Shown here in pieces: positions 18,741 through 51,102 of a stretch of 64,000 nucleotides of DNA. Position 1 is the stretch's first letter; every line of letters begins with the position of its first letter. Made by a program: the position numbers and the translations under genes. The DNA is from an uncultured bacterium (lineage in GTDB: Bacteria; Bacillota; Clostridia; Oscillospirales; CAG-272), in the NCBI GenBank assembly GCA_945920215.1, contig CAMEJM010000003.1, forward strand, positions 65,115 to 129,114, written 5' to 3'. The notes under the pieces are model-generated. The model searched no databases, was not told the DNA's origin, and was given only the letters and a program-made list of their open reading frames with translations.

Positions 18741-18759
18741 TTCAATGACTTGCACTATT

Positions 18760-23405: not shown

Positions 23406-23481
23406 CTGGTGGAGCATAGGGGACTCGAACCCCTGACCCCGACACTGCCAGTGTCGTGCGCTCCCAACTGCGCTAATGCCC
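23406..23481 (-). tRNA. tRNA-Ala (anticodon GGC), CCA encoded
   Basis: Reverse complement GGGGCATTAGCGCAGTTGGGAGCGC...CTGGCAG...GGTTCGAGTCCCCTATGCTCCACCA. Findings: G3:U70, anticodon GGC, 76 nt. Confidence 0.92.
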
Positions 23482-23496
23482 CGCTGATTTCTTAAA

Positions 23497-23525
23497 CAAT
23501 ATACCATAAAAAAAGCGACATTGCA
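23497..23525 (-). promoter_or_regulatory. Promoter of the tandem tRNA-Ala genes
   Basis: Minus strand: TTGCAA (23525..23520), 17-nt spacer ending in TGG, TATATT (23502..23497). Confidence 0.65.
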
Positions 23526-23943
23526 AGCCTGTTTTATTATTTTTCTAAAAAATCGTATTGGCGAAAGAATCCGGCTGAATCGTTGAGATTCAAATGAGTT
23601 TTTTCCAGAAGCGGAGGGGGGCGATTGTATAGTCAGTTTTATTTGCGAGCTATTGTTAGATAATTCCTTGATTATCTTTTCTGCCTATATTATAATAGTC
23701 AAAAAAGGATTGATGGGATATGAGCATCGTGATCGATGTGTCCTGCCTTGGGAAGGGACATGGTGTTCCTGCGTTGGAGCGAATGCTTGACTATTTTTCC
23801 AATCCTTTTTAACAGGTATCATCGCCGTTATCGGTGTATGAATAAAAATTTAGAAGTAGAAAGGGTGGTTCTTTATGAAGATGAATCGTGTATGGAGGGT
23901 TCACGCTTCCTAACCCTCCGAATTGAATTTTGGAGGAAACAGA

Positions 23944-24873
23944 ATGGAAAAACAAATTACCATCCGTGAAGCAACCACGGAAACTGATGTTGTAGCCTTT
24001 TGGGAGCAACTTCACATCTATTACATACGGGACATTTTCCCTGATCCGGAAGATGAGGACAGAGGGTATTTTCTTGATGATGAACACCGCTCAATGATAC
24101 AAAAAATCCATGATCGTCAGCAGGATCGGTGCTACTATCTGTTCTTTCATCGGGATGGACAGGACATTGGCTTTGCCCTCCCGGTAATCTATACCACAGA
24201 GGACGGCAAGTGCTTCCTTATGGAGTTCTGCGTTTATCCGCAATTTCGGGGCAATGGAACGGGCAAAGAATGCGCCAAGGCGCTGCTGCAATGGGCACGG
24301 GAAAAAGGCGCATTGTATGCGGAATTGAACTATGGCAACGACGCTCGTCGCCGTCGCTTTTGGGAAAGCGTTGGCTTTGTCTGCAACGGTGCTGATGAGT
24401 GGGGCGATCCTCTTATGATCCTACCGCCGAACAGGGATGTTCCCATTGCAGTCGAAGTGCTTACCAATCCCGAGGACTGGCAACTCAAAAAGCTGGAAAA
24501 TGGATTTTTGCGGGAAATCGGAGAAAATCCACTGACGGAAGAAAAACAAGGTCAACTGGTACAGGCAATCCGAGATGGAAAGATTCTCTTCTTTGTAGCA
24601 AGGCGTGGCTATCGGGCAGTTGGAATGTGCAGCGTAGCCAAATGTTTCTCTACCTTTTCCTGTTCCGATACCGGCGTGTTTGATGACTTTTTCATTGAGC
24701 CGGTATTCCGAAAGAAAGGTGTTGCCAGACAACTGGCACTTGCAGCGCAATGCTGGTGCAGAGAAAACGGCATTGCAAGCCTGACGGTTTGCTGCGCATC
24801 TTGTGATGAAGAAATGTATCAGTCACTCGGCTTTGACACACATTTAGGCACTACATTTGCATATCTTGGATAA
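23944..24873 (+). CDS. Tandem-domain GNAT family N-acetyltransferase
   Basis: Track ORF 23923..24873. ATG 23944 (MEKQITIRE) follows GGAGGA. There are two acetyl-CoA motif A regions, QFRGNGTGKECAKALLQWA and VFRKKGVARQLALAA. Confidence 0.8.
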   Translation: MEKQITIREATTETDVVAFWEQLHIYYIRDIFPDPEDEDRGYFLDDEHRSMIQKIHDRQQDRCYYLFFHRDGQDIGFALPVIYTTEDGKCFLMEFCVYPQFRGNGTGKECAKALLQWAREKGALYAELNYGNDARRRRFWESVGFVCNGADEWGDPLMILPPNRDVPIAVEVLTNPEDWQLKKLENGFLREIGENPLTEEKQGQLVQAIRDGKILFFVARRGYRAVGMCSVAKCFSTFSCSDTGVFDDFFIEPVFRKKGVARQLALAAQCWCRENGIASLTVCCASCDEEMYQSLGFDTHLGTTFAYLG

Positions 24874-24924
24874 CTGACAGCAGGGTTCCACACGAAAACA
24901 TTGTCCGCTATCATTGGAATAAAG

Positions 24925-24967
24925 AAAGCACCCAATTTGAACCCTAAAAGTTCAAATTGGGTGCTTT
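24925..24967. terminator. Bidirectional terminator shared by the GNAT gene and tRNA-Ser
   Basis: 18-bp perfect stem AAAGCACCCAATTTGAAC / GTTCAAATTGGGTGCTTT with A/T runs on both sides. Confidence 0.8.
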
Positions 24968-25056
24968 TGGCGGAGAGGGCGGGATTCGAACCCGCGTGTG
25001 GTTGCCCACAAACTGATTTCGAGTCAGCCCCGTTATGACCGCTTCGATACCTCTCC
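24968..25056 (-). tRNA. tRNA-Ser (anticodon CGA), long variable arm, CCA encoded
   Basis: Reverse complement GGAGAGGTATCGAAGCGGTC...CTCGAAA...TGTGGGCAACCACAC...GGTTCGAATCCCGCCCTCTCCGCCA, 89 nt. Confidence 0.9.
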
Positions 25057-25084
25057 GTATGAGCGTGGGGGTCGGACGAGGGTT

Positions 25085-25113
25085 ATTATAACATACCACC
25101 GGCGGGAACGCAA
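25085..25113 (-). promoter_or_regulatory. Promoter of tRNA-Ser
   Basis: Minus strand: TTGCGT (25113..25108), 17-nt spacer, TATAAT (25090..25085) with an upstream TG. Confidence 0.65.
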
Positions 25114-25140
25114 GTGTTTTCGCATATTTTACAGCGGGGG

Positions 25141-25169
25141 TTGCAAAAAAATACTGCCTATGTTAAAAT
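25141..25169 (+). promoter_or_regulatory. Promoter of the dCMP deaminase gene
   Basis: TTGCAA (25141..25146), 17-nt spacer, TAAAAT (25164..25169). Confidence 0.65.
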
Positions 25170-25200
25170 GAAAAAAACGTAAGACAAAGGGTAAGATGAT

Positions 25201-25695
25201 ATGAAAAGACAAGGATATATCACATGGGACGAGTATTTCATGGGCGTGGCTCTTCTGACTGCGCAGCGTTCCAAAGACCCCAATACCCAAGTGGGCGCTT
25301 GTATTGTCGACAGAGAGAAAAGAATTCTCTCCACCGGGTATAACGGCTTCCCCAGCGGCTGCTCCGATGACGTTTTCCCGTGGGAACGCGAGGGAGAGCA
25401 GAGCAATGATACCAAATATCCCTTTGTTGTTCATGCGGAACTGAACGCCATCCTGAATGCGCGAGGCAAAAATCTGACCGGGGCAAAGCTGTATGTTGCG
25501 TTGTTTCCGTGTAATGAGTGCGCCAAGGCGATTATTCAAAGCGGCATTACTGAGGTTGTTTACCTTTCGGATAAATACAAGCATACCTCTCCCACTTTGG
25601 CGTCCCGCATGATGTTCGACGCCGCCGGCGTCAAGCTGACGCCTTTTGAAGGCAATCAGGATACCATTACTCTCAATTTCAAGATCGATTCTTAA
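25201..25695 (+). CDS. comEB: Deoxycytidylate (dCMP) deaminase, ComEB family
   Basis: 164 aa. WDEYFMGVALL..., zinc motifs HAELNA and PCNECAKAI. Confidence 0.9.
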   Translation: MKRQGYITWDEYFMGVALLTAQRSKDPNTQVGACIVDREKRILSTGYNGFPSGCSDDVFPWEREGEQSNDTKYPFVVHAELNAILNARGKNLTGAKLYVALFPCNECAKAIIQSGITEVVYLSDKYKHTSPTLASRMMFDAAGVKLTPFEGNQDTITLNFKIDS

Positions 25696-25721
25696 AAAAT
25701 GCGGCGCTGCCGCATTTTTTT
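25694..25721. terminator. Terminator after dCMP deaminase
   Basis: AAAAAATGCGGCgcTGCCGCATTTTTTT. Confidence 0.8.
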
Positions 25722-25829
25722 ATTTTCTGCAAAAAGAAAACCGATGCAGGACATGAATGATATGAAATATATGTTCGGATAATAGAATCGGAAAAAATGG
25801 GTAGGTATCTTTGAGTGCCTGCGCAAAAC

Positions 25830-25858
25830 TTGACTTTTTCAGAGAGTATATATATAAT
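25830..25858 (+). promoter_or_regulatory. Promoter of the COG0523 gene pair
   Basis: TTGACT (25830..25835), 17-nt spacer, TATAAT (25853..25858). Confidence 0.7.
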
Positions 25859-25895
25859 AAGCAATTGAAATAAAATTTGTTCGGAGATGGTTTAA

Positions 25896-27101
25896 GTGAC
25901 AAAGATCGATATTATTTCCGGCTTTTTGGGCGCCGGTAAAACAACTCTGATTAAAAAGTTGATCCGCGAAGTTTATCAGGGCGAAAAGATTGTGCTGATT
26001 GAAAATGAATTCGGTGAAATCGGTATCGACGGCGGATTTTTGAAGGATTCCGGCATACAGATCAACGAGCTGAATTCCGGCTGTATCTGCTGCTCTCTGG
26101 TAGGGGATTTCGGCAATGCACTCGGCAAGGTGCTCAGCGATATGAAGCCGGACCGTATTATTATTGAGCCGTCCGGTGTCGGCAAACTTTCCGACGTTAT
26201 CAGAGCGGTGCAGGGTGCTGGGACCGAGGGGGCTGTCTTAAACGGCTTTACGACGGTTGCCGACGTCAATAAATGCAAGATGTATATGAAGAACTTCGGT
26301 GAGTTCTATAACGATCAGATTGCCAATGCCGGCTGTATCATCCTGAGCCATACAGCCAAAGCAAAGGAAGAAAAAATTGCCGAGTGCGTGGCACTGTTAC
26401 GCGAGCATAATGACAGCGCAGTGATTGTCACAACCGATTGGGACAAGCTCTCCGGTGCGGAAATCCTTGCCGCCATGGAGCGCAAAGATACCTTGAGCGC
26501 TGAAATTGAACGCCTGGCAAAAGAGGCAGAGGAGGCGCACCATCACCATGATGGCGACGACTGCTGCTGCGGGGAACATCACCATCATGATGAGGAGGAG
26601 CATGACCATCACCATCATCACGATGACGATGAAGAGGAGCATGACCATCACCATCATCACGATGATGATGAAGAGGAGCACGAGCATCACCATCATCACG
26701 ATGATGACGAAGAGGGGCACGAGCATCACCATCATCACGGCGATGACGATGATGACGATGATGACGATGAGTGCGATTGCGGTTGCGGGGAACATCACCA
26801 CCACCATCACCATCATCATGCAGATGAGGTCTTTACAAGCTGGGGGAAAGAGACGACCCGCAAGTTTACCGCCGACAGAATCCGTGAGATCTGCGCTGCA
26901 TTTGACGAGGACGCAGAGCGCTACGGCATGATTCTGCGTGCAAAGGGCATTGTGGAAGGGGAAGACGGCACTTGGATTCACTTTGATTATGTTCCCGGTG
27001 AGACCGATGTGCGTACAGGCGCCGCTGCCGTTATCGGGCGCGTGTGCGTGATTGGGTCACACCTTGCGGAAGATGAACTTGCCGAGCTGTTCGGACTGTG
27101 A
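25896..27101 (+). CDS. COG0523-family (CobW/ZigA/YeiR-like) GTPase metallochaperone with a ~97-residue His/Asp/Glu/Cys-rich insert
   Basis: GTG start after GGAGATGG. Walker A GFLGAGKTTL, metal motif GCICCSL (CxCC), IIIEPSGVG, then the insert AHHHHDGDDCCCGEHHHH...EHHHHHHHHH, then a CobW_C-like C-terminal domain. Confidence 0.88.
   Translation: MTKIDIISGFLGAGKTTLIKKLIREVYQGEKIVLIENEFGEIGIDGGFLKDSGIQINELNSGCICCSLVGDFGNALGKVLSDMKPDRIIIEPSGVGKLSDVIRAVQGAGTEGAVLNGFTTVADVNKCKMYMKNFGEFYNDQIANAGCIILSHTAKAKEEKIAECVALLREHNDSAVIVTTDWDKLSGAEILAAMERKDTLSAEIERLAKEAEEAHHHHDGDDCCCGEHHHHDEEEHDHHHHHDDDEEEHDHHHHHDDDEEEHEHHHHHDDDEEGHEHHHHHGDDDDDDDDDECDCGCGEHHHHHHHHHADEVFTSWGKETTRKFTADRIREICAAFDEDAERYGMILRAKGIVEGEDGTWIHFDYVPGETDVRTGAAAVIGRVCVIGSHLAEDELAELFGL
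26592..26747 (+). repeat. Four in-frame tandem copies of a 39-bp unit encoding EEEH(D/E)HHHHHDDD
   Basis: Units at 26592..26630, 26631..26669, 26670..26708 and 26709..26747 differ by a few substitutions. Further GAT/GAC and CAC/CAT runs follow. Confidence 0.9.
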
Positions 27102-27116
27102 TCCGGGGGTGCTTTT

Positions 27117-28064
27117 ATGGAAATGCCCGTTTATCTGTTCACCGGCTTTTTGGAAGCCGGTAAAACAAAGTTTATTCAGGAGACTCTTGCCGACCCCAAA
27201 TTCAACGAGGGGGAACAAATGCTTGTTCTGCTTTGCGAAGAGGGGGAAGAAGAACTTGATCTGAGCGCCATGCCGGGAGGCGGCAAAAATATCTCCGTCA
27301 GCGTATTTGACGATGAACAGAGACTGACACCCGACAGACTTTCCGCATTGCAGAAACGCGCCCGTGCCGAGCGGGTGCTGATTGAGTACAACGGCATGTG
27401 GAATATTGATACTCTGTACAACTCCTTGCCGGACGGCTGGTTTGTGTGCGAGGAGATTTGTCTCTTTGACGCGTCAACCATACAGCAATATAACGCTAAT
27501 ATGCGGCAGCTTGTCGTTGATAAGCTGAAAAGCGCGCAAATGGTGATTTACAACCGCGTCCGCAAAGATATGGATATAGAGTTTATGCATAAGTTGGTGC
27601 GCGCTGTCAGCCGCCGATGCAATATCGGTTACGAGTACGAAGACGGCACCTTTATACCTGATGAAATTGAAGACCCGCTTCCGTTTGACCTGAACGCGCC
27701 GGTGGTGGAAATCAGCGACAAGGATTATGCCATCTGGTACAGTCATATCTCCGAGAATATGGAGCAATATGACGGTAAGACCGTTTCTTTTCTCGGCTTG
27801 GTCGAGCGCGATCCTTCCATGGGGAAGAATCTGCTGGCAATCGGGCGCCAGGTAATGGTGTGTTGCGCGGCGGATACCGCCTACCGCCCCTTGATTGCCA
27901 AATACGAGCAAGCAGGGAAACTGAACAACGGTCAGTGGGTAAGAGCAACAGGGAAAATCACGCTTGAGAATAACCGCTATTACCAAACGAAGGGTCCTGT
28001 TCTGAACGTCACCGCACTTGTTCCTGCGTCAGAACCTGCCGACCCGGTCGCTGCTTTTTATTGA
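27117..28064 (+). CDS. Degenerate COG0523-like P-loop domain fused to a DUF1980/TIGR03943-like C-terminal domain (CC-x-x-D motif)
   Basis: 315 aa. The N-terminus VYLFTGFLEAGKTKFI keeps GxxxxGKT. The CxCC motif is replaced by LLCEEGEEE, and ExSG by IEYNGMW. The C-terminal region is GKTVSFLGLVERD...GRQVMVCCAADTAYRP...WVRATGKI. It starts 16 nt after the preceding gene. Confidence 0.6.
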   Translation: MEMPVYLFTGFLEAGKTKFIQETLADPKFNEGEQMLVLLCEEGEEELDLSAMPGGGKNISVSVFDDEQRLTPDRLSALQKRARAERVLIEYNGMWNIDTLYNSLPDGWFVCEEICLFDASTIQQYNANMRQLVVDKLKSAQMVIYNRVRKDMDIEFMHKLVRAVSRRCNIGYEYEDGTFIPDEIEDPLPFDLNAPVVEISDKDYAIWYSHISENMEQYDGKTVSFLGLVERDPSMGKNLLAIGRQVMVCCAADTAYRPLIAKYEQAGKLNNGQWVRATGKITLENNRYYQTKGPVLNVTALVPASEPADPVAAFY

Positions 28065-28071
28065 TATATTT

Positions 28072-28103
28072 GAACGGCTGCCTTTCGTACAAGGCAGCCG
28101 TTC
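28072..28103 (+). terminator. Terminator hairpin after the COG0523 pair
   Basis: 13-bp perfect stem GAACGGCTGCCTT / AAGGCAGCCGTTC with a 6-nt loop. The downstream T-run is weak (catgcTTTatgTT). Confidence 0.6.
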
Positions 28104-28157
28104 CATGCTTTATGTTCAAAAAAATATGTTGCAGAAGATCGGGTGGGTAGAATATTT

Positions 28158-29315
28158 TTATTCGATCGAATACTTTTTTCCGTAATACGCTGCAAAACTT
28201 TTGATACATTGTTTTGTCGCTGATTCGTCAATTGGTAATTGGACAAATTCCGAATTAAGTTCTCTTAAGCGGGTGCAGGATAGAAACTCGATATTCTCTC
28301 CGTATGACTGTATGTAGGCTAATCTGTACAAATTCAGTTGCAGTTGTACTTTTTTGGGATACAAATGCATGGTCCTTTTGATATCGTTGATTCCCAGCAT
28401 ATGATCCATACTTATCAGCATATCGATTCTGCCGCAAAAGATTGGAATATCGTTATCGTCGCAAAATAATGCGATCTTTTCGGAGTCAAGCACCTTGAAA
28501 TGATTTTTTTCCTTAATTTTCAGGTAATTTGAAAATTCGATACTGTCGGAGTATACGCCGTTTTTTTCATAATTTTCGATTTCCTTATGTAGCACCGTAC
28601 CTTTTGCGGCGGCTCTTTTCAGTACAGCGGGATCAATGTATTTGTAATCATCTAATCCCATTTTTTGACTGGTATATTGTACGATAGCGGATACGCTGAA
28701 TACCTGCACGCCATCAACACGGTAAATATGATTTGTATCATCATACTCTATCCGGTGACCGTTAATCATTAAATGATTGTCAATCGAATAATAGTTATTC
28801 CCTCTTTCATGTGAAACAGCGCTGCTTTCATTCGGCAAAGGTACAGAGATATATTTGGGTATTGCAGCACTGTTTGCGGTGTTTGATATATTGACGCAGG
28901 TACTTGAAACATTGTGAGAAACACCGGCTGTATCTTTGGTTGCATTTGCATTGGTCACATTGCAAACCGTGCTTGCAGCATTTTGAACCGCGTTAGCGGC
29001 TTGTTTGCCCGTTTTTTCCTCCTTTCCCATGAGGTCTTTTATAAATATACATTTGTGAAATAAAGTATCTATATCGTATTCGTTTTTGATATATCCCCAA
29101 ATAGGATCGAAAGGGAAGAATATAAGAATATAAGGAAGTAGCAGATAAATGATATGAGCGAAGATTAGGGAAAAAAGTTGCATCAAAATGTCATCGAGAT
29201 TAAATGTGAAAACAGCATATAGGAGCTTTATGCAATCCCAAATGGCATCAATCACAATTGAAACAACAATAATAATCAATAACACAGGGTATAAAAGAAT
29301 ACTCCAATATCTCAT
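28158..29315 (-). CDS. Membrane-anchored PD-(D/E)XK (RecB/Cas4-like) nuclease-domain protein, hypothetical
   Basis: Track ORF 28158..29378. ATG 29315 (MRYWSILLYPVLL) follows GAGG. It has two hydrophobic helices, an N/S/T/A-rich linker, and a C-terminal domain with GTVLHKEIE, GRIDML, NDIKRT (D..D-x-K) and QLQLNLYRLAY (QxxxY). The gene sits in a 30-33 % G+C islet. Confidence 0.6.
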   Translation of the reverse strand: MRYWSILLYPVLLIIIVVSIVIDAIWDCIKLLYAVFTFNLDDILMQLFSLIFAHIIYLLLPYILIFFPFDPIWGYIKNEYDIDTLFHKCIFIKDLMGKEEKTGKQAANAVQNAASTVCNVTNANATKDTAGVSHNVSSTCVNISNTANSAAIPKYISVPLPNESSAVSHERGNNYYSIDNHLMINGHRIEYDDTNHIYRVDGVQVFSVSAIVQYTSQKMGLDDYKYIDPAVLKRAAAKGTVLHKEIENYEKNGVYSDSIEFSNYLKIKEKNHFKVLDSEKIALFCDDNDIPIFCGRIDMLISMDHMLGINDIKRTMHLYPKKVQLQLNLYRLAYIQSYGENIEFLSCTRLRELNSEFVQLPIDESATKQCIKSFAAYYGKKYSIE

Positions 29316-29403
29316 AGCAACCTCGGTTATATGAATAGGATTCGGATGATATTGACGGAAAAATGAAATGTAGAACAATCGCTCGGTTTTACAGTTTGAG
29401 AAT

Positions 29404-29430
29404 AAAAGAAAAAAGGCACAAGATGCCTTT
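29404..29430 (-). terminator. Terminator of the tRNA-Thr/tRNA-Gly unit
   Basis: Minus strand: AAAGGCA-tcttg-TGCCTTTTTTCTTTT. Confidence 0.7.
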
Positions 29431-29475
29431 AAATTCAGAAGTCGGTTTCTGAAAACCGCTTCGGGGGTTTGTAAA

Positions 29476-29549
29476 TGGAGCGGATGACGGGAATCGAACC
29501 CGCGTAGTCAGCTTGGGAAGCTGAAATTCTACCATTGAACTACATCCGC
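29476..29549 (-). tRNA. tRNA-Gly (anticodon CCC), CCA encoded
   Basis: Reverse complement GCGGATGTAGTTCAATGGTAGAAT...TTCCCAA...GGTTCGATTCCCGTCATCCGCTCCA. Discriminator U73, 74 nt. Confidence 0.9.
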
Positions 29550-29608
29550 AGAGGTTTTTATTGATTTTTATAGACCCGTCATGTATAATAGACAGGCGGG
29601 AAAGAGGG

Positions 29609-29683
29609 TGGAGCTGGTGGTGAGATTTGAACTCACGACCTGCTGATTACGAATCAGCTGCACTGCCCCTGTGCTACACCAGC
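29609..29683 (-). tRNA. tRNA-Thr (anticodon CGT), CCA encoded
   Basis: Reverse complement GCTGGTGTAGCACAGGGGCAGTGC...TTCGTAA...GAGTTCAAATCTCACCACCAGCTCCA, 75 nt. Confidence 0.9.
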
Positions 29684-40352: not shown

Positions 40353-40379
40353 GCGCTCGCGTTTCGCGGGCGCTTTTTA
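40353..40379 (+). terminator. ispE terminator
   Basis: GCGCTCGC-gtttc-GCGGGCGC (8 bp including one G:U) followed by TTTTTAC. Confidence 0.7.
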
Positions 40380-40414: not shown

Positions 40415-40443
40415 TTGACACTCTATAAGAAAAATGTTATAAT
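40415..40443 (+). promoter_or_regulatory. Consensus sigma-A promoter of the TerB-like/ATPase/helicase cassette
   Basis: TTGACA (40415..40420), 17-nt spacer ending in TGT, TATAAT (40438..40443). It lies 32 nt upstream of the GTG start. Confidence 0.75.
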
Positions 40444-40475
40444 CAAACTTATGAAAAAACGAGGAGGGCGGAAGA

Positions 40476-42152
40476 GTGGACGAGCGCAAAATGCGTGAAA
40501 ACGACGCTTTTTGGGACATCGCGTCACTGGTGCCGCGAAAACAGCGCCCTACGCTTTCTTCTTTTATTCCCACCCCCGCCGCGCCGATGTACGAAGCGGA
40601 AGAAACCGAGAGTGGGGAGCAGCATTCCGGAGAGTCGCGCACGCTGCATTTTGCCGAGACAGCCGGCACTGCCGAAACATACCTGCCGGAGGGCAATCCT
40701 TTCCTTGGGAGCGTAAGTATCCTGCGCCGGACAGGCGGCTATGATTTTTACCGCTTGTTTTTATCGGACGCCGTAAAATATTTTTCTTTATGGGGAACAG
40801 AAATGCCCTATGTACCGTTTTTTTCCTATATGCCGCAATATTCTCAACTGTCGCCGCAGCAGTCGGCTTACTATCTTTGGTGGCGGGAACAAGTAAAAAC
40901 GGGGAATTTTCTGCGCTGTGACGAAGGTTACTTTTACCTGTACGTGTATGAGATCCTGAATTTGACTCCGTCGCTGATCGACCCCCATGACGGCATACTT
41001 CAGCTTTGCCGCGTGTGGTCGGCATATCATAAAGAAATGCCGAAAATCAACAAATTCCTTTCGGAATGGATCATTGATTATTGCTTGATTTTTCGTTTGC
41101 GTTGCCCGCAAAAAGAGCTTTCCGGGATGATGGCCGCGGTATTGTCTCAAACCGCTTTCAGGGAATTTTATCTCGGCGCTTTGGCAGAGCGTACAACCGA
41201 AAGCACGGAAACGCTGTTGGCGCTTCTCAGCGATTACAACTGGCATACCAGCCGCTATGCGGCGGGAGACACTGCCGGGGCTTATGCCCAGCACATTCCG
41301 GGGTCGATGTATTCCGTTTTCGAGCACTTGTTTGAACGGGGCGACTTGTCTATCGGTGACGGAGCAGAGAGTGAACTTGAACGCACTGCGTTTTGCGGCG
41401 CTTTGTGTGCCGGCGGAATCAAAACGGCTCTGCGCGTGATTTATCGTCCTTTTTCGGGCGCCACTGCTTTGCGGTCGAATATCTCGGCTGCCGTTAAGTA
41501 CAGCGAGAATATCCTGCGTGCGAAATTGGGGCTGAAAAGCAGGTTGAATGTTCCGCCGCTTGACGAGGAATACAAGCGTTTGATCGACGCGTATTACCGC
41601 GTCATGTATGTCCGGGAAGCACCACTGAAAAAAACCGTGACAGCGCCAACGCCTGCGTATGAGGCGCTTTATGATGCGCCGGAAACCGGATTTGACTTTA
41701 CACGCGCGGATGAGATCGAAGCGCTTTCATGGGAGAATACCAAACGCCTGATTCCGGAAGCGGAATTGTCTGAGAGCGCCGATGAAGAGACGGTTCAACC
41801 TTTCCCTCGCATCCAAGAGAACGGTGCGGAAAGCACGCATGATAATAACGGTTGCGCAGAAGCCGACGCGACGCTTTCCCACGGTGCCGCCGATACCTTT
41901 GGCTTGAGTGAAGAAGCAATATTGTTTCTTTGTGCGTTGGAAAGCGGAGCAAAACCGGGAGAGAAATTCCGCGGGCGGGAGGATCTTCTGGCAGATCAGA
42001 TCAACGTTGCGTTTTCGGAGCGCAGCACGATAGGCGATATTATTCTTGAAAATGAGGGCGAAGGATACGTCCTGATACCCGACTACGCAGAGGAGGTTCA
42101 ACAATGGATAGCAGCCATACGGCGGGAGTTGCCGTACCCAAAAGAATACTGA
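40476..42152 (+). CDS. TerB-N / TerB-C domain protein (SngA-like, Shango-type system component)
   Basis: 558 aa, GTG start after GAGGAGGG. TerB-N-like core: VPFFSYMPQYSQLSPQQSAYYLWWREQVKTGNFLRCDEGYFYLYVYEILN. TerB-C-like end: FGLSEEAILFLCAL...LADQINVAFSERSTIGDIILENEGEGYVLIPDY. Confidence 0.75.
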   Translation: MDERKMRENDAFWDIASLVPRKQRPTLSSFIPTPAAPMYEAEETESGEQHSGESRTLHFAETAGTAETYLPEGNPFLGSVSILRRTGGYDFYRLFLSDAVKYFSLWGTEMPYVPFFSYMPQYSQLSPQQSAYYLWWREQVKTGNFLRCDEGYFYLYVYEILNLTPSLIDPHDGILQLCRVWSAYHKEMPKINKFLSEWIIDYCLIFRLRCPQKELSGMMAAVLSQTAFREFYLGALAERTTESTETLLALLSDYNWHTSRYAAGDTAGAYAQHIPGSMYSVFEHLFERGDLSIGDGAESELERTAFCGALCAGGIKTALRVIYRPFSGATALRSNISAAVKYSENILRAKLGLKSRLNVPPLDEEYKRLIDAYYRVMYVREAPLKKTVTAPTPAYEALYDAPETGFDFTRADEIEALSWENTKRLIPEAELSESADEETVQPFPRIQENGAESTHDNNGCAEADATLSHGAADTFGLSEEAILFLCALESGAKPGEKFRGREDLLADQINVAFSERSTIGDIILENEGEGYVLIPDYAEEVQQWIAAIRRELPYPKEY

Positions 42153-43486
42153 ACAATCTCCTCTCCGCTCTGGAAGCGGGTGTGGTACCGCGCAGCGGCG
42201 CGCCCTATATTGCCATCGGGCGCGGGGAAGAAATCAAGTCCTTGCTTGAAAATCTCGAAACGGTCTCCGACGGCGGCGCCGTCGTCAGATTCCTGATCGG
42301 GCGTTACGGAAGCGGTAAGAGTTTTTTGATACAGTTGATCCGAGGGTATGCGCTCGATCGTGACTTCCTTTGCGCCGATGCGGATTTGTCACCCGAGAGA
42401 AAACTGTCAGGCGCCGGAGGAATTGCCACATACCGGGAGTTGATGCGCAACTTCGCGTCCAAAGCGGCGCCGGATGGCGGCGCTCTGCCGTTGGTGCTTT
42501 CCAGGTTTTATAACGGATTGCGGGAAAAACTTGTCGCGCAGGGGATGGACCCTGAGAGTTCTTCTTTCCAAAACGAACTGAAAAAAGAAATACACGCCGT
42601 TTTGTCCGAGATGGAGACCGGGATCGGCGGGTTTGAGTTCGCGCGGGTGCTCGGCGCCTATTTCACCGCCCTGTCCGACGATCATTCCGAAATCAAAAGC
42701 GCCTGCCTGCGTTGGTTGCGCGGGGAATTCGCCACAAAAACCGAAGCGCGCGCCGCGCTGGGCTTTGCGGTCGGCGGAATTATCGATGACGCCAACTGGT
42801 ACGAGTATCTGAAGCTGTGGGCGGCTCTTTCGGCAAAAATCGGGTATCACGGATTGATTGTGTACGTCGACGAGTGCATCAACCTTTATAAAATTCCGAA
42901 CCGTATCTCACGGGAGGCAAATTACGAGAAGCTCCTCGCCGTGTTCAACGATACTTTACAGGGCAGGGCGGCGCATCTCGGCGTCTTTTTCGGCGGCACT
43001 CCGCAGTTTCTCGAGGACACGCGTCGCGGACTGTTCAGCTATGAGGCCCTGCGCTCTCGTCTGGAGGACAGCCGCTTCGTCGCGGAGGGCGGCTTCCGTA
43101 ATTTATCTGCGCCCGTGATGCGCCTCCGCCGCTTGTCCGATAACGAGTTGCTTGCGCTGATTGCGCGTTTGTCGCGCCTTTATGCGCAAAAGTATAACAC
43201 TGACGAACTGGTCAGCGAAAAGCAAATGCAGACCTTTTTGCAGTACGAGCTTTCCCGCGCAGGGGCGCAGACAATGGTGACGCCGCGCGAAATGATACGT
43301 GACTTCCTGTCACTGCTTTCGGTTCTTCGCGAGAATCCGGGAACGGAATTTGAAACCTTAGTCAAACTGACGGCGGTCAGTACCGGCATACAGGAAGAGG
43401 AGGATATTCCGTCGGGTTCCACGTCCGCGGCGCAACCAATCAATAGCTCCGCTTCTACTGTTAAAATGTTTGATATTGATATTTGA
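42104..43486 (+). CDS. DUF2791/BrxD-like P-loop ATPase (SngB-like)
   Basis: 460 aa. ATG follows GAGGAGG (7-nt spacer) and overlaps the upstream gene by 49 nt. Walker A IGRYGSGKSF, Walker B GLIVYVDEC. The N-terminus LSALEAGVVPRSGAPYIAIGRGEE is typical of this family. Confidence 0.75.
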   Translation: MDSSHTAGVAVPKRILNNLLSALEAGVVPRSGAPYIAIGRGEEIKSLLENLETVSDGGAVVRFLIGRYGSGKSFLIQLIRGYALDRDFLCADADLSPERKLSGAGGIATYRELMRNFASKAAPDGGALPLVLSRFYNGLREKLVAQGMDPESSSFQNELKKEIHAVLSEMETGIGGFEFARVLGAYFTALSDDHSEIKSACLRWLRGEFATKTEARAALGFAVGGIIDDANWYEYLKLWAALSAKIGYHGLIVYVDECINLYKIPNRISREANYEKLLAVFNDTLQGRAAHLGVFFGGTPQFLEDTRRGLFSYEALRSRLEDSRFVAEGGFRNLSAPVMRLRRLSDNELLALIARLSRLYAQKYNTDELVSEKQMQTFLQYELSRAGAQTMVTPREMIRDFLSLLSVLRENPGTEFETLVKLTAVSTGIQEEEDIPSGSTSAAQPINSSASTVKMFDIDI

Positions 43487-43602
43487 GTTGCGGCAGAATT
43501 GGCTACGCACGTCAAAATGTTAAAAAGGCACCGTATCCGACGGCAATTTCATGTCAGAGAGATATTTGAAGCAGACAATAAGAGAGAAAGGAGAGCCGCA
43601 CA

Positions 43603-45831
43603 GTGACAGCCGACGAAATCTTTTCAAGGTTCCCACCGTTTATTCAGGACTATATTTACCGAAACTCGTGGCAGGAACTCCGCGAAGTGCAAATGCAAGC
43701 GGCGGAAGCCATTTTCACAACATCCGACAATCTGCTTCTGACTTCTTCCACTGCGTCCGGTAAAACCGAAGCGGCTTTTTTCCCGATTCTTGCCGACCTA
43801 TGGGAAAATCCACCGCAGGGCGGGGGCGTCAGCGTTCTGTATATTGCTCCTTTGAAAAGCCTGATAAACGATCAATTCGGACGGATGGAAGAGCTGCTTG
43901 ATATGAGTGGCGTAAGCGTATGCCATTGGCACGGCGACGTCTCCGGTTCCCAAAAAGCAAAACTGTTGAAGAACCCGGAGGGAATTCTGCAAATAACGCC
44001 GGAATCTTTGGAGAGCATTCTGATGCGGCGCTCCAACGATATTCCGCGCTTGTTTGCTTCTCTGCGCTATATCGTTATCGACGAAGTGCATACGCTGATC
44101 GGAACCGACCGCGGCAATCAAATCATTTGTCAGTTGTGCCGTATGGAACGCTTGCTCGGCTTTCGCGCGCGCCGCATAGGACTTTCCGCTACGATCGGCG
44201 ACCTCTCCGTTGCGGCAGATTGGCTGGAAGCGGGAAGCGCGCGGCACACAATCGCTCCCGTGCCGACACGGGAAAAACTGCACTGGCGGCTGGGCATGGA
44301 GCATTTTTATATTCAAAATTCCGTTGCGGCTCCCCTTCCTTCCGAAAGCGATGAGGGGGAAAATAAGCCTGCGCCACTTGACCCGGGATACGAATTCCTG
44401 TATGATACGGTGAAGGATAAAAAAGCGTTGGTGTTTTCAAACTCCCGCGAGGAAACCGAGTATACTACCGCCACATTACGTCAGATTGCGGAACGCAGAG
44501 GAGACGAGGACGTTTTTCTGATTCATCACGGGAACCTGTCCGCCGCTCTGCGCGAGGACGCGGAGATGAAAATGAAAGAGGAGAGCCCCCGTCCCGTCGT
44601 GACCTGCGCCACGGTTACCATGGAGCTTGGGATAGACATCGGACGTCTGGAACGGGTGGCGCAGCTCGGTGCGCCGACGACGGTCTCCGGCTTTTTGCAG
44701 CGCCTCGGCAGAAGCGGGCGCAGAAATGCGCCGCCTGAGATGATGATGGTCTTCCGGGAGGAAATGCCGCTTCCGAACGCACCGCTGCCGCAGTTGATCC
44801 CGTGGGAGCTTCTGCGCGCCATTGCGATCGTAGAGCTGTACAGTAAGGAGCGGTTTATTGAACCGCCTGTCAAGCGCCGTCTGCCGCTGAGCCTTGCATA
44901 CCATCAGACAATCAGTATCCTTGCTTCGGCAGGGGAGCTTCTTCCCAAACAGCTTGCCGACCGGGTTTTGTCGCTTCCGCCCTTTGCGCATATCAGCCGC
45001 GAGGATTACCGCACGCTTCTGATTTCAATGCTCCAAAACGATGATTTGGAGACGACGGAGCGGGGAGGCTTGATTGTCGGTCTGCGTGGCGAACGCCTGA
45101 TTTCCAGTTACAAGTTTTTTGCCGTGTTTAAGGACAGCGAGGATTATACGGTCCGCTGCCGTTCAGACGAAATAGGGACGATTACCAACCCGCCGCCCGT
45201 AGGAGACAGATTTGCCCTTGCGGGGCGCGTGTGGGAGGTCACCGAATTGGATATGCCGCGCCGACTGGTATACGTCCGCGGCGTCAGCGGTAAAATGGAG
45301 GTTTCATGGCCGGGCGACAGCGGGGAGATCCATACGCGCCTGCTCGAAAAGATGAGAGACGTGCTGTTCGGAACCGAGGAGTATCCGTATCTCTTGCCGG
45401 CAGCGCGTGAAAGGCTTGCCACCGCAAGACGTGTGGCAAATGCAACCGGGATGCGCGGCAATATGCTTGTGCATATCGGCGGGAGCAGTTGGGTGCTGTT
45501 TCCATGGCTTGGTACACGCCCGTTCCGTTGCCTTAAACGCTTCCTGAAACGGGAAGCGGGGCAGTTCGGTATTTCCGACATTCAAAGCGAGGGGTGTTGT
45601 TATATCACCTTTAAGGGAAAAGGAAATCTGCGGGCTTCGCTTCTTCCTGCCATGGCAGATCGGTTAAAACTGGAACCGCTCGACCCTTTGACATTGTTGG
45701 CTGATTCGGAATGCCCTGTATTTGATAAATACGACGATTATATACCGGCAGAACTTCTGAGAAAGTCCTATGCGCTGGATCGCCTTTCGGTTAATGAAAT
45801 GACGGAGCGTATTTTGGGAGAAAACACATGA
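43603..45831 (+). CDS. Lhr-like superfamily-2 DEAD/DEAH-box helicase (SngC-like)
   Basis: 742 aa, GTG start after AAAGGAGAG. Motifs: I SSTASGKTEAAF, II VIDEVHTL, III LSATIGD, VI FLQRLGRSGRR. A long C-terminal extension follows. Confidence 0.8.
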   Translation: MTADEIFSRFPPFIQDYIYRNSWQELREVQMQAAEAIFTTSDNLLLTSSTASGKTEAAFFPILADLWENPPQGGGVSVLYIAPLKSLINDQFGRMEELLDMSGVSVCHWHGDVSGSQKAKLLKNPEGILQITPESLESILMRRSNDIPRLFASLRYIVIDEVHTLIGTDRGNQIICQLCRMERLLGFRARRIGLSATIGDLSVAADWLEAGSARHTIAPVPTREKLHWRLGMEHFYIQNSVAAPLPSESDEGENKPAPLDPGYEFLYDTVKDKKALVFSNSREETEYTTATLRQIAERRGDEDVFLIHHGNLSAALREDAEMKMKEESPRPVVTCATVTMELGIDIGRLERVAQLGAPTTVSGFLQRLGRSGRRNAPPEMMMVFREEMPLPNAPLPQLIPWELLRAIAIVELYSKERFIEPPVKRRLPLSLAYHQTISILASAGELLPKQLADRVLSLPPFAHISREDYRTLLISMLQNDDLETTERGGLIVGLRGERLISSYKFFAVFKDSEDYTVRCRSDEIGTITNPPPVGDRFALAGRVWEVTELDMPRRLVYVRGVSGKMEVSWPGDSGEIHTRLLEKMRDVLFGTEEYPYLLPAARERLATARRVANATGMRGNMLVHIGGSSWVLFPWLGTRPFRCLKRFLKREAGQFGISDIQSEGCCYITFKGKGNLRASLLPAMADRLKLEPLDPLTLLADSECPVFDKYDDYIPAELLRKSYALDRLSVNEMTERILGENT

Positions 45832-46586
45832 AAAGCATTTACGCATTGCTCGCCCCGGTGTACGACCGACTGAACGAGGAAATAGACTACGAGAGTTGGG
45901 CGGACTATACCGGCGAAGTATTTTCAACCTATGCGAAGCGTGAGATCAAAATCGTTCTTGATTTGGGTTGCGGTACAGGCAGTATGACGCTGCCGCTTGC
46001 CCGCCGCGGATTTGATATGATCGGATTGGATCTTTCTCCCGAGATGCTCACCGTGGCGCGTACTCGCGCTGAGGAGGATCATCAGAACGATATTCTTTGG
46101 ACGATGCAAAGCATGACGGAGTTTGAGCTGATGAATCCGGTAGATGCCGTTGTCTGTACACTGGACGGCATCAATCATCTGACAAGCAAGCAAGATTTGG
46201 AAGCCTGTTTCGCTTGCGTGAACAGGTATCTCGCGCCCGGCGGCGTGTTCGTATTTGACGTGAACAGCCGAAGAAAGTTTGAAGAGATATACGGGGACGA
46301 GGTGTATGCCCTGGAGACGGAGGGCGCATTCTGCGTGTGGCAGAATACATACAGACCCTCCACGCATTTGTGCCGCTTTTATATCACCCTGTTTTCAGAG
46401 CGCGCAAACGGCTCCTATGGGCGAAGCGACGCAGTGCAGAGCGAACGCTACTACCCGCTTGCAACTTTGGAAAAAGCGCTTTCGGGAAACGGGATGAAAC
46501 TGCTTGCCGCATTCGGCGGACAGGATTGTCACGCGATTTGCCCGCAGGATGAGCGCTGGTATATTGTAGCCGGAAAGGCTGAATGA
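45828..46586 (+). CDS. Class I SAM-dependent methyltransferase (small-molecule/generic type)
   Basis: 252 aa. SAM motif I VLDLGCGTGSMTL and post-I acidic residue IGLDLS. The start ATG overlaps the helicase stop (ATGA). No DPPY/NPPY-type DNA methyltransferase motif was seen. Confidence 0.8.
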   Translation: MKSIYALLAPVYDRLNEEIDYESWADYTGEVFSTYAKREIKIVLDLGCGTGSMTLPLARRGFDMIGLDLSPEMLTVARTRAEEDHQNDILWTMQSMTEFELMNPVDAVVCTLDGINHLTSKQDLEACFACVNRYLAPGGVFVFDVNSRRKFEEIYGDEVYALETEGAFCVWQNTYRPSTHLCRFYITLFSERANGSYGRSDAVQSERYYPLATLEKALSGNGMKLLAAFGGQDCHAICPQDERWYIVAGKAE

Positions 46587-46595
46587 GGAGACAAA

Positions 46596-47549
46596 ATGGC
46601 ATTATCGAAACTGATGAGAGGTATGACCAGAGACGGCAGCGCCCGCGTACTGGTCATTGATTCCACCGAAATCGTACGGAGCGCGGCAGCGGTTCATCAT
46701 ACGTCGCCGACGGCAACGGCGGCACTCGGCAGACTTCTGACCGCAGCCTCCATGCTTGGTTCCATGATGGGAGAAAAAACGGACAGTCTTACCGTCGGCA
46801 TCAACGGAGACGGCGCGGCGGGCAAGATGATTGCCGTCGCCGACTACTACGGCAATGTGCGCGGATATATGGAGAATCCGGCAGTCGACCCGCCCGTCTG
46901 CGGAGACGGAAAATTGGATGTGGGCGGCGCTGTCGGACGAGGGGTGCTGTATGTCATCCGTTCGGAGGGGCAGGGAGAACCGCAGACGGGGATGATCGCG
47001 CTGAAGAGCGGTGAGATTGCCGAAGACATCGCTGCGTATTACGCCGAAAGCGAGCAGATTCCGACAGTATGCGCCCTCGGCGTACTGGTGGACAGGGATC
47101 GCACCTGCCGCGCCGCCGGCGGGGTGTTGATTCAACTGCTTCCTTTTCCTGCGGAGCAGACGGTTGCAAAGCTGGAGGAGAACGCGCGGAAGCTTACCAA
47201 TGTATCTTCCATGATTGACAGCGGTATGACGCCGCATCAGATCATGGAAAGCGTCATGGACGGCATTGCATACGACCCGTTTGATGAAATTGACGTGGAG
47301 TACCTCTGCACTTGTTCGCGGGAGCGCATGGAACGCGGACTTCTTTCGCTGGGAGAAAAGCAGGTACAGGACCTTCTTTCCGAGCAGTTGGCGGAAGGGA
47401 AACCGGACGCTCTGACCGCTACCTGCCGCTTCTGCAACGCGGAGTATACCTATACAAGAGCCGAGTTGGATGCGGGATTCAGAAAAATGAAAGAACAGCA
47501 GACGGCACAGGAAAACCTCTCGCCGGCAGATCAATCCGGGGTATCGTGA
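46596..47549 (+). CDS. hslO: Hsp33 family redox-regulated chaperone
   Basis: 317 aa. AAVHHTSPTATAALGRLLTAA plus the zinc-centre cysteines CTCS...CRFCN near the C-terminus. The RBS is GAGGAG. Confidence 0.9.
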   Translation: MALSKLMRGMTRDGSARVLVIDSTEIVRSAAAVHHTSPTATAALGRLLTAASMLGSMMGEKTDSLTVGINGDGAAGKMIAVADYYGNVRGYMENPAVDPPVCGDGKLDVGGAVGRGVLYVIRSEGQGEPQTGMIALKSGEIAEDIAAYYAESEQIPTVCALGVLVDRDRTCRAAGGVLIQLLPFPAEQTVAKLEENARKLTNVSSMIDSGMTPHQIMESVMDGIAYDPFDEIDVEYLCTCSRERMERGLLSLGEKQVQDLLSEQLAEGKPDALTATCRFCNAEYTYTRAELDAGFRKMKEQQTAQENLSPADQSGVS

Positions 47550-49095: not shown

Positions 49096-50436
49096 TTGAA
49101 AAAGCTTTTACGCAAGCTTACATCGACGCAGTTGATTGCGATATGCTTTCTTTGCTTGATACTGCTCGGTGCCTTGCTGCTGAAATTGCCGGTTTCCTCA
49201 GCCGACGGTGCTTCCGCGCCGTTTCTGACCTGCCTGTTTACATCTACCAGCGCTACCTGCGTCACCGGTCTTGTAGTTGCGGATACCTATATGCAATGGT
49301 CTGTATTCGGACAGATCGTTATTATTCTGCTGATCCAGACAGGCGGTCTTGGCTTTATGACGATCGTCTCGATCTTCTCGCTTCTCCTCCGACATCGTCT
49401 CGGTCTGTATGAACGTACTTTGTTGATGCGGACAACAGGGTTTCTGACCCACGGGGGCTTGACGCATTTGATACGGCGGGTCCTGTACGGTACCATGATT
49501 TTTGAGGGGGCGGGCGCTCTGCTGCTCTCTGTTCGTTTTATTCCGCGTATGGGTTTTTTCCGCGGGGTCTGGAACGCGGTGTTCCACAGCGTTTCCGCGT
49601 TCTGTAATGCCGGCTTTGACCTGATGGGCAAATACGGTGCGTATTCCTCAGTGACCCAATTCAGGGACGACCCGTTGGTATGTCTGACACTTTGCGCGCT
49701 TATCATCATCGGCGGGATCGGCTTTTTGGTTTGGGAAGATGTATACCGGAATGGCACGCACTTCAAGCGCTATCATCTGCACACAAAGATTTCCTTGGTC
49801 AGCACAGCCATTCTTCTATGCACCGGTACCGTTTTCTTCTTCATTCTTGAAAGAAATGCGACCATGAGCGGTATGAACTTCGGGGAGCATTTGCTTTCTT
49901 CGTTCTTCCTTTCCGTGACTTTCCGCACCGCCGGTTTCGACATTGTCGGCGTGTCCGGATTGTCTGACAGCTCTGTGTTTTTGGGTGTTGTGCTGATGTT
50001 TATCGGCGGTTGTCCCGGATCCACTGCCGGCGGTATTAAGACAACTACCGCCGCCGTGCTTTTGCTGGACGCACTTGCCTCTTCGACTCGCCGAGGAAAC
50101 GTCACGGTATTCAAGCGACGCATCGGTGACGATATCATCAAGCGGGCAGTTGCAATTGCCACCATCTATTTGGTAGTTATTGTGACCGCGACCATACTGA
50201 TCTGCGCGTTTGAACCTTACCCACTGAACCAAGTGCTGTTTGAGGTTACCTCTGCTATCGGTACGGTAGGTCTGTCCATGGGAATCACCTCTTCGCTTTG
50301 CGCTTTCTCCCGTTGTATTCTGATATTCCTGATGTACGCAGGCAGAATCGGCGGTATTTCGCTTGTGATGATTCTCGGACAGAAGAGCAGAAGCGCTCTG
50401 ACAGAGCGTCCGACGGAAAATATCCTGATTGGTTAA
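49096..50436 (+). CDS. trkH: TrkH/KtrB family potassium uptake membrane protein
   Basis: 446 aa, TTG start after GGAGGGAAAGG. It has repeated pore-loop motifs (TATCVTG, NAGFD, TAGFD, GGCPGSTAGGIKT, AIGTVGLS). Confidence 0.9.
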   Translation: MKKLLRKLTSTQLIAICFLCLILLGALLLKLPVSSADGASAPFLTCLFTSTSATCVTGLVVADTYMQWSVFGQIVIILLIQTGGLGFMTIVSIFSLLLRHRLGLYERTLLMRTTGFLTHGGLTHLIRRVLYGTMIFEGAGALLLSVRFIPRMGFFRGVWNAVFHSVSAFCNAGFDLMGKYGAYSSVTQFRDDPLVCLTLCALIIIGGIGFLVWEDVYRNGTHFKRYHLHTKISLVSTAILLCTGTVFFFILERNATMSGMNFGEHLLSSFFLSVTFRTAGFDIVGVSGLSDSSVFLGVVLMFIGGCPGSTAGGIKTTTAAVLLLDALASSTRRGNVTVFKRRIGDDIIKRAVAIATIYLVVIVTATILICAFEPYPLNQVLFEVTSAIGTVGLSMGITSSLCAFSRCILIFLMYAGRIGGISLVMILGQKSRSALTERPTENILIG

Positions 50437-50448
50437 AGGAGAGAAATC

Positions 50449-51102
50449 ATGAAATCCATCATAGTCATCGGCATGGGGCGTTTCGGTCGCCAGTTGGCAA
50501 AGAATATGCAGGAGCTCGGTAACGATGTCATGATCGTTGACCAGGACGAAGACATTATTGAGGAGCTTGCGGACAAGTTTACGGATTCTCACATAGGGGA
50601 TTGCACAAGCGAAGCGGTGCTTCGCTCGCTTTCGGTTGACAGCTTCGATATATGTTTTGTGACGATCGGTTCCAACTTTCAGTCCTCTTTGGTGATTACC
50701 TCGCTGCTCAAAAAACTCGGCGCGCGGTTTATCGTTGCCAAGGCAAAGCAGGATATTCAGGCGGAACTTTTGCATACAATAGGCGCCAACGAGGTGATTT
50801 ATCCCGATCGCGATATTGCGGAAAAATTAGCGGTGCGCTATAACGCAAGTAATATTTTTGACTACATTCAGTTGACCGATAAGTATGCCATTTATGAGAT
50901 TCCCGTGCCGGAGTCTTTAGTGGGGGTGACAATTAAGGACGCCGATATCCGTCGCAACTTTAATGTCAATATTATTGCAATCAAGCACGATAAGGTTCTC
51001 AACCCTGCGCCGGACGCGGAATATGTTTTTGAGGCGGGCGACGTATTAGTGGTGATCGGGCAGTCGGCGGACGTATTCCGTCTGGCAAGCATGACGGCCT
51101 GA
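50449..51102 (+). CDS. trkA: TrkA/KtrA family potassium uptake NAD-binding subunit
   Basis: 217 aa. VIGMGRFGRQLA Rossmann (RCK_N) start followed by an RCK_C region. Confidence 0.9.
   Translation: MKSIIVIGMGRFGRQLAKNMQELGNDVMIVDQDEDIIEELADKFTDSHIGDCTSEAVLRSLSVDSFDICFVTIGSNFQSSLVITSLLKKLGARFIVAKAKQDIQAELLHTIGANEVIYPDRDIAEKLAVRYNASNIFDYIQLTDKYAIYEIPVPESLVGVTIKDADIRRNFNVNIIAIKHDKVLNPAPDAEYVFEAGDVLVVIGQSADVFRLASMTA

Follow-up and report, generated by a model that had tools for sequence, protein, structure and literature searches.

How does a gene cassette of the type associated with anti-phage defence come to occupy a place inside a housekeeping operon, and what might it do there? The question is raised by a 64,000-nucleotide stretch of an uncultured, Ruminococcaceae-like Clostridia bacterium of gut or rumen (GenBank assembly GCA_945920215.1, contig CAMEJM010000003.1, positions 65,115 to 129,114; referred to below as the window), in which three genes, sngA, sngB, and sngC, are found between ispE and a methyltransferase gene followed by hslO and pfk. 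The triad is probably a chromosomal defence cassette of the Shango family that was inserted between ispE and methyltransferase-hslO-pfk in an ancestor and has since been inherited with these flanks. Cassette-bearing organisms comprise at least nine deeply diverged, uncultured lineages of gut and rumen Clostridia.

Family membership of the cassette

The three genes are adjacent and co-directional, and the coordinates given for them in the original prediction, which had been made from the sequence alone, all hold, with the open reading frames (ORFs) intact:

40476..42152, + strand: sngA, 558 amino acids (aa), GTG start; PADLOC SngA, Pfam TerB_N
42104..43486, + strand: sngB, 460 aa, ATG start; PADLOC SngB, Pfam BrxC_BrxD
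43603..45831, + strand: sngC, 742 aa, GTG start; PADLOC SngC, Pfam DEAD and Helicase_C

By their profile matches, the genes constitute a clear member of the already described Shango (SngA/SngB/SngC) anti-phage family, as had been proposed. The Sng models are the top PADLOC matches for all three proteins, with nearly end-to-end coverage: SngA reaches 134.8 bits (1.8e-39; residues 95-545 against profile positions 83-527 of 528), SngB 526.5 bits (1.5e-158), and SngC 787.7 bits (3.4e-237; residues 5-734 against positions 4-714 of 720). Pfam detects TerB_N in SngA (9.9e-19, 68.3 bits with a cutoff of 25), BrxC_BrxD (DUF2791, PF10923) in SngB (9.7e-146), and both DEAD (7e-28) and Helicase_C (4.7e-14) in SngC. 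These four domains had been anticipated; two others, TerB_C on the window SngA and DEAD_assoc on SngC, had been anticipated as well but were not recovered.

Shango, reported in 2022-2023, consists of three genes, whose products are an ATPase, a helicase, and a protein resembling TerB. The protection it confers ranges from modest to clear in E. coli and P. aeruginosa; the published anti-phage phenotypes come from systems of E. coli and of P. aeruginosa PA14 (PMC10250203; bioRxiv 10.1101/2022.05.11.491447). The window cassette agrees with the systems of Millman et al. 2022 and Johnson et al. 2023 (PA14 cDHS1) in its three proteins and in their order: a TerB_N protein with a TerB_C-like tail comes first, followed by the DUF2791 ATPase and the DEAD/DEAH helicase. 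About 12% of the cDHS1 loci of P. aeruginosa contain Shango (PMC10250203), and in metagenome-assembled genomes from the rumen it is reported among the commoner defence systems (PMC13356809). The cassette is no new kind of system; newly described are its fixed slot, its conservation, and the existence of occupied and empty alleles.

Two of the proteins also have relatives in type 2 (Pgl-type) BREX, in which a homologous DUF2791 ATPase (BrxD) and an Lhr-like helicase (BrxHI) form an adjacent pair, and SngC, BrxHI, DruE, and DpdJ fall into one clade of a helicase phylogeny (PMC12278908). A degenerate or minimal type 2 BREX, in which the BrxD-like ATPase and the BrxHI-like helicase would be leftovers and the adjacent methyltransferase would serve as the self-marking enzyme, could explain why the BrxD and BrxHI models match SngB (9.2e-47, 158 bits) and SngC (8e-120, 399 bits), and why a gene for an S-adenosylmethionine (SAM)-dependent methyltransferase abuts sngC in all nine lineages. 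Such a remnant is extremely improbable. The Sng models score far higher (526 versus 158 bits for SngB, 788 versus 399 bits for SngC), SngB reaches only 158.9 bits against the NCBIfam model BREX_BrxD (cutoff 350), and SngA matches no BREX counterpart. Neither the scanned window proteins nor the eight related loci described below include a PglX methyltransferase, PglZ phosphatase, PglW kinase, or BrxC; the window cassette contains a TerB_N protein instead. The adjacent methyltransferase matches small-molecule class I families only and stays beside hslO where the cassette is absent. The ten other large window ORFs that were scanned are all housekeeping genes (encoding FeoB, the formate-tetrahydrofolate ligase FTHFS, PurL/D/H/F, a GH31 glycosidase, Ffh, XseA, and RecN). 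Given the higher Sng scores and the absence of PglX, PglZ, and PglW, the cassette is assigned to Shango and not to BREX, in agreement with the original prediction.

A fixed slot in nine lineages

Eight independent loci were retrieved through SngA homologues that are 33-88% identical to the window SngA, which gives nine lineages together with the window. Housekeeping proteins among these lineages are only 46-70% identical, and yet the slot is the same in nine of nine: ispE, zero to three extra genes, sngABC in identical order, the methyltransferase gene, hslO, sometimes sod, and pfk. The extra genes between ispE and sngA encode EamA, a leucine-rich repeat (LRR) protein, or an unknown product. 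Large LRR_5-repeat proteins and an EamA transporter are encoded there in L017 (3790..6486) and L020 (2075..7762), the latter also with an unannotated 730-aa protein. Because of these LRR_5/EamA insertions, the upstream junction of the cassette is less stable than the downstream one.

Cassette and flanks have diverged together. For the nine lineages, the matrix of SngA, SngB, and SngC identities correlates with that of IspE, HslO, and Pfk at r=0.985, and neighbour-joining trees of cassette and flanks have five of six splits in common; L006 and L018 are placed differently, the conflicting split having only 48% bootstrap support. In two close pairs, synonymous divergence (dS) of the cassette amounts to 0.21-0.39 and 0.58-0.82, matching that of the flanks. 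The ratios of nonsynonymous to synonymous divergence (dN/dS) in the two closest pairs and the mean pairwise identities of the proteins are as follows:

SngA: mean pairwise identity 42%, dN/dS 0.16-0.26
SngB: mean pairwise identity 69%, dN/dS 0.07-0.09
SngC: mean pairwise identity 71%, dN/dS 0.05-0.07
IspE: mean pairwise identity 50%, dN/dS 0.12-0.14
Methyltransferase: mean pairwise identity 54%, dN/dS 0.07-0.20
HslO: mean pairwise identity 63%, dN/dS 0.05-0.07
Pfk: mean pairwise identity 66%, dN/dS 0.06-0.11

SngA is the fastest-evolving gene product of the set. The clades seen for the cassette are also those along which the outer synteny varies (sod between hslO and pfk; rpsF-ssb-rpsR or AI-2E permease genes upstream). 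Farther downstream, trkH-trkA (49096..51102) lies between pfk and DUF3021/nusB in the window and in L005 and is absent from that place in L018, L023, and L024; it constitutes a second lineage-specific indel, adjoining the cassette region.

In its setting, the window copy differs from its relatives. Published and plasmid-borne copies occur in variable defence islands, genomic islands, and conjugative plasmids, whereas the window copy occupies a fixed slot of the core genome, is probably transcribed on into housekeeping genes, and belongs to a slot held across family-level or deeper divergence. It thus lies outside the defence island or mobile element setting that is typical of, although not defining for, Shango. 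SngB relatives of 41-50% identity are found on 694 plasmids, of which 541 are predicted to be conjugative; in a C. estertheticum plasmid, sngABC is flanked by a relaxase gene on one side and by IS110 transposase genes on the other. Carriage by phages or prophages was rejected: a tblastn search with SngB against 50,697 phage records gave no match, and neither SngA nor SngB matches any PHROG family.

Empty sites and insertion history

As the eight cassette loci had all been found via SngA, HslO homologues were sampled as well. Two relatives, L023 and L024, whose HslO is 64-65% identical to that of the window, contain no cassette: the last 4 or 8 nucleotides (nt) of ispE are at the same time the first of the methyltransferase gene, and hslO and pfk follow. 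L024 has the outer context of the window: two AI-2E permease genes precede the region, and DUF3021 and nusB follow it. L023 and L024 group with the window and L005 (84% bootstrap) in a tree built from IspE, methyltransferase, HslO, and Pfk, and are nested among cassette-bearing lineages. A third relative, L001, also lacks the cassette and possesses methyltransferase-hslO. The region of L001 is rearranged, as ROK and MutY are encoded upstream of it on the other strand; a small ORF ahead of methyltransferase-hslO (8823..9136) is tentatively TrpR/YerC-like by sequence alone, with no hidden Markov model confirmation. HslO scans of genome and metagenome contigs returned three distant genomes and one fragment, none with a cassette, a search too insensitive for the clade.

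The comparison of the ispE-hslO interval, which had been suggested at the outset, thus reveals both occupied and empty sites. The cassette is a true insertion between genes of an ispE-methyltransferase-hslO-pfk operon, and it is old, inherited with its flanks, and dispensable: the shared slot of nine lineages, the co-divergence with the flanks, and the empty sites in relatives argue jointly for stable inheritance without indispensability. The earlier description of a cassette inserted among housekeeping genes is therefore correct as to topology, given the empty sites in L023 and L024, but the insertion is not a recent or mobile one, considering its presence in nine lineages and the co-divergence. 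Universal and syntenic presence in all relatives, which had been named as a sign of core genes, is approached by the nine lineages, although L001, L023, and L024 do not carry the cassette.

Since lineages with empty sites are nested among those with occupied ones, the history must include one loss or two gains at the least. The ispE/methyltransferase junction might alternatively be a hotspot of recurrent site-specific acquisition, into which Shango was inserted independently or swapped among relatives by recombination. This reading would accommodate the nested empty sites, the absence of any scar in L023 and L024 with their clean ispE/methyltransferase overlap, and the disagreement of the cassette and flank trees on L006 and L018. 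It is nevertheless very unlikely: Shango alone, and never another system, is found in the slot, with no integrase, transposase, or repeat flanking it; the cassette dS equals the flank dS in two close pairs, and the identity matrices are almost perfectly correlated; the outer synteny tracks the cassette clades, and the one conflicting split is poorly supported.

The composition of the cassette is in line with ancestral insertion followed by inheritance with the flanks. Its G+C content is 52-55%, and its G+C, third-position G+C (GC3), and codon usage are inside the range of the window housekeeping genes; no integrase or transposase is present in the neighbourhood. A G+C content that looks native by eye and the absence of a flanking integrase or transposase had been noted in the original prediction. 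The nearest neighbours are genes for two AI-2E permeases, IspE, the methyltransferase, Hsp33, phosphofructokinase (PFK), and TrkH/TrkA. Elsewhere in the window, a ZMP/ZTP riboswitch (18659..18743, - strand, 60.2 bits) adjoins the purine-biosynthesis genes (purL/D/H/F, 7-17 kb), and five tRNA genes are located at 23201..29683.

Expression signals and the recipient operon

The signals and genes bordering the cassette are:

40353..40379, + strand: ispE intrinsic terminator, stem 40359..40373 followed by a T run
40415..40443, + strand: sngA promoter, TTGACA (40415..40420), 17-nt spacer, TATAAT (40438..40443), 12/12 consensus positions
40461..40468, + strand: ribosome-binding site GAGGAGGG, 7 nt upstream of the sngA GTG
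45828..46586, + strand: methyltransferase gene, class I SAM-dependent, 252 aa; Pfam Methyltransf_25/11/12
46596..47549, + strand: hslO (Hsp33), Pfam HSP33 2.8e-84

The perfect TTGACA-17-TATAAT promoter that had been reported downstream of the ispE terminator is real, as is the hairpin with its T run. The promoter carries a TG extension (extended -10, sigma-A/sigma-70 type) and is the sole 12/12 match to TTGACA-17-TATAAT within 39-49 kb of the window. A promoter of the form TTGACA-17-TA[T/A]AAT precedes sngA in nine of nine lineages (11-12 of 12 positions, with TGn in eight), and a hairpin with a T run lies ahead of it in each of them, according to upstream sequences read by eye. The remaining intergenic sequence upstream of sngA looks unrelated between lineages. 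The ispE terminator insulates the cassette from transcription arriving from upstream.

No terminator is present at the 3' end of the window cassette. The start of the methyltransferase gene overlaps the sngC stop by 4 nt, and 9 nt separate the methyltransferase gene from hslO; the corresponding junctions range from -17 to +45 nt and from -4 to +50 nt over the nine lineages. The only + strand terminator-like match between sngC and hslO (46232..46247) lies within the methyltransferase gene and has a broken T run. As both junctions offer hardly any space for signals, the cassette promoter probably drives constitutive transcription that runs on into the methyltransferase gene and hslO, so that hslO is now probably transcribed from the cassette promoter. 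The label of a self-contained cassette consequently fits the upstream side, where it has a promoter of its own, but not the downstream side, where there is no terminator and the sngC stop overlaps a gene of the recipient operon.

Inside the cassette, sngA and sngB overlap (-49 nt), and sngB and sngC are 116 nt apart. This spacer (43487..43602) measures 115 nt in L005 and 14-34 nt in seven other lineages; its hairpin (43529..43545) is flagged as terminator-like on the minus strand only.

The methyltransferase is encoded by the recipient operon, and its gene is probably co-transcribed with the cassette; the enzyme is no part of the defence system. Its length is 250-255 aa across the cassette-bearing loci. 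Only small-molecule class I families match it (Pfam Methyltransf_25/11/12) and no DNA-methyltransferase family; its nearest PDB entries, 3d2l and 1y8c, are uncharacterised small SAM-dependent methyltransferases from structural genomics. In L001, L023, and L024, the gene stands beside hslO without a cassette, and it is tightly coupled to hslO in 12 of 12 relatives examined, whether or not they bear the cassette. A role as fourth component was rejected, as the gene has no DNA-methyltransferase signature and remains beside hslO in relatives that lack the cassette. The same observations do not agree with self-marking in the manner of restriction-modification, as there is no DNA-methyltransferase match and the gene is not tied to the cassette. 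Its PADLOC match to 'mad2' was discounted, since it covers the generic SAM-binding domain only.

Features of the three proteins

All motifs quoted in the original prediction are present. In SngB, the Walker A motif GRYGSGKSF spans aa 66-74 (with Lys72) and the Walker B motif LIVYVDEC aa 251-258 (with Asp256 and Glu257); the forms GR[Y/F]GSGKSF and IDE/VDE are preserved in all nine lineages and one plasmid copy. SngC contains TASGKTEAAF (aa 50-59, Lys54), IDEVH (aa 159-163, Asp160, Glu161, and His163), SAT (aa 195-197), and QRLGRSGRR (aa 366-374), and its helicase motifs are invariant in 33 homologues.

Judged by its AlphaFold model (mean predicted local distance difference test score, pLDDT, 74.6), SngC is an Lhr-core-type superfamily 2 (SF2) DExH helicase with a complete predicted Lhr-core fold. 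The best Foldseek match is M. smegmatis Lhr (5v9x_A; E 2e-23, template-modelling scores TMq 0.62 and TMt 0.60, 830 alignment columns over the whole length), followed by B. subtilis MrfA (6znp), and 5v9x is also the nearest PDB entry by sequence (4.1e-27). The domain succession RecA1-RecA2-winged helix-domain 4 is named after the published Lhr-core description and is not tool output. SngC thus resembles these repair helicases in its whole-length superposition and DExH motifs, but differs from them in several respects: the identity is about 21%, no Pfam DEAD_assoc match is obtained at E<=0.01, the scores against NCBIfam Lhr-type models are far under the cutoffs (TIGR04121, 209.7 versus 850 bits; PRK13767, 183 versus 849 bits), which places it outside the family at the sequence level, and it is encoded with SngA and SngB instead of standing alone or being paired with a ligase or exonuclease.

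SngA consists of an N-terminal motif (aa 10-24), a disordered linker, a Tyr-rich TerB_N core (aa 69-215), a helical middle domain, an acidic linker, and a TerB_C-like tail (aa ~478-551). The TerB_N-like core contains FFSYMPQYSQL... at aa 115-145 and GYFYLYVYEILN at aa 151-162. The AlphaFold model has a mean pLDDT of 79.5, with values mostly above 90 over aa 60-380; a small domain gives faint winged-helix-like Foldseek matches only. Neither SngA nor SngB has a PDB match by sequence search. The window SngA does not match Pfam TerB_C at E<=1, a match that is obtained with 40 of 48 aligned homologues (best 4.8e-12), and its tail (aa 499-550) can be aligned to the TerB_C tail found in a plasmid SngA. 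Compared with published Shango, the window SngA is highly divergent (135 bits against the model) and has a clade-specific N-terminal motif, DDFWDIxKLVPKKK (40503..40547). Its Trp13 is invariant in 48 homologues and is followed by the variable disordered linker; the motif, which has no counterpart in the C. estertheticum plasmid SngA, could serve in docking or membrane binding. The SngA subfamily is large: a profile of the window subfamily finds 2374 clusters (at 50% identity) with E<=1e-10, and at least 150 near-full-length clusters with E<1e-114. Ter-family domains were reportedly first linked to stress responses by Anantharaman, Iyer and Aravind in 2012.

No nuclease, toxin, or transmembrane segment was detected in SngA, SngB, or SngC, and to judge from the sequences a dedicated killing effector is not apparent in the cassette.

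Possible function and the question of domestication

In the ancestor, a unit of terminator, strong promoter, and sngABC was placed exactly between ispE and the methyltransferase-hslO-pfk operon. Purifying selection on the cassette has been strong ever since, and it has been passed on together with its flanks; some lineages lost it or never gained it. By their domains, SngB and SngC may form an ATP-driven DNA-translocating module similar to BrxD/BrxHI, in which SngC, by analogy to mycobacterial Lhr, would translocate 3'-to-5' on single-stranded DNA. SngA might supply specificity or sensing, regulation, or a scaffold; among the three proteins, this fastest-evolving one, with its TerB_N core and TerB_C-like tail, is the strongest candidate for a specificity or sensor subunit or a scaffold. 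Because no nuclease, toxin, or membrane-spanning domain is recognisable, the system would most likely interfere by using ATP to unwind or remodel intermediates of phage DNA replication or recombination, or by recruiting host nucleases. The literature searched at most speculates on 'membrane surveillance' by Shango, citing the TerB domain.

Several points weigh against a vertically inherited defence cassette. SngB and SngC (69-71%) are better conserved than ispE, hslO, and pfk (50-66%), which is unusual for a defence system, as is long vertical retention; congruent trees would also result from co-transfer of the whole ispE-pfk region between relatives. The defence function in this clade of uncultured organisms rests on homology, and the window SngA differs so strongly from plasmid-borne SngA that alignment is limited to the TerB_N core motif and the C-terminal tail. 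Foldseek (E<=0.001) retrieves no structural relative of SngA from the PDB or BFVD that would suggest an activity, the cassette proteins have no effector domain, and the literature searched, up to 2026, describes no Shango mechanism, trigger, or effector, which agrees with the original prediction as regards mechanism and trigger.

Some of these features would be expected if Shango had been domesticated as a genome-maintenance or stress module, with the triad acting on the cell's own DNA and not, or not only, on phages. Its activity could then be an Lhr/MrfA-like repair of damaged DNA or the removal of RNA:DNA hybrids, and it would be expressed constitutively as a stress operon with the methyltransferase gene, pfk, and the gene for the redox chaperone Hsp33 (hslO) from the one conserved consensus promoter. 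The synteny and co-divergence with the flanks over nine deep lineages are compatible with such a role, as are the strong conservation of SngB and SngC (dN/dS 0.05-0.09) above that of the housekeeping flanks, the conserved promoter, the tight or overlapping junctions to the methyltransferase gene and hslO with no convincing terminator, the DNA-repair helicases Lhr and MrfA as best structural matches of SngC, and the lack of a toxin or nuclease effector. Domestication is nonetheless considered unlikely. The cassette is dispensable, with a clean empty site in L023 and L024, close to the window lineage, and no cassette in L001. The only published phenotypes of the family are anti-phage, and its close members are found on conjugative plasmids and in defence islands. 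The empty sites, which show an ispE-methyltransferase-hslO-pfk operon, explain the adjacency to hslO by insertion history. Conservation alone does not imply housekeeping either, as species-level 'core' defence systems against mobile genetic elements are documented (PMC13064858). The window cassette resembles these as a chromosomally retained defence system that lies in neither a mobile element nor a defence island; the published concept, however, applies within species (orthologues at least 95% identical), whereas here the lineages have housekeeping proteins of 46-70% identity.

Implications for the Shango family

The present clade is one in which Shango behaves almost as a core gene set, occupying one slot over very deep divergence. 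The natural occupied and empty alleles of this site are useful for comparative and functional tests, and SngA, which evolves fast, is pointed to as the likely specificity subunit. If the cassette were domesticated, the triad of TerB_N protein, BrxD-like ATPase, and Lhr-like helicase would act on a generic aberrant DNA structure and not on a phage-specific cue, and the occupied and empty sites would offer a handle on the Shango mechanism. Caution is advised with regard to 'defence-system' calls in metagenomes, which can include vertically inherited, possibly dual-purpose modules.

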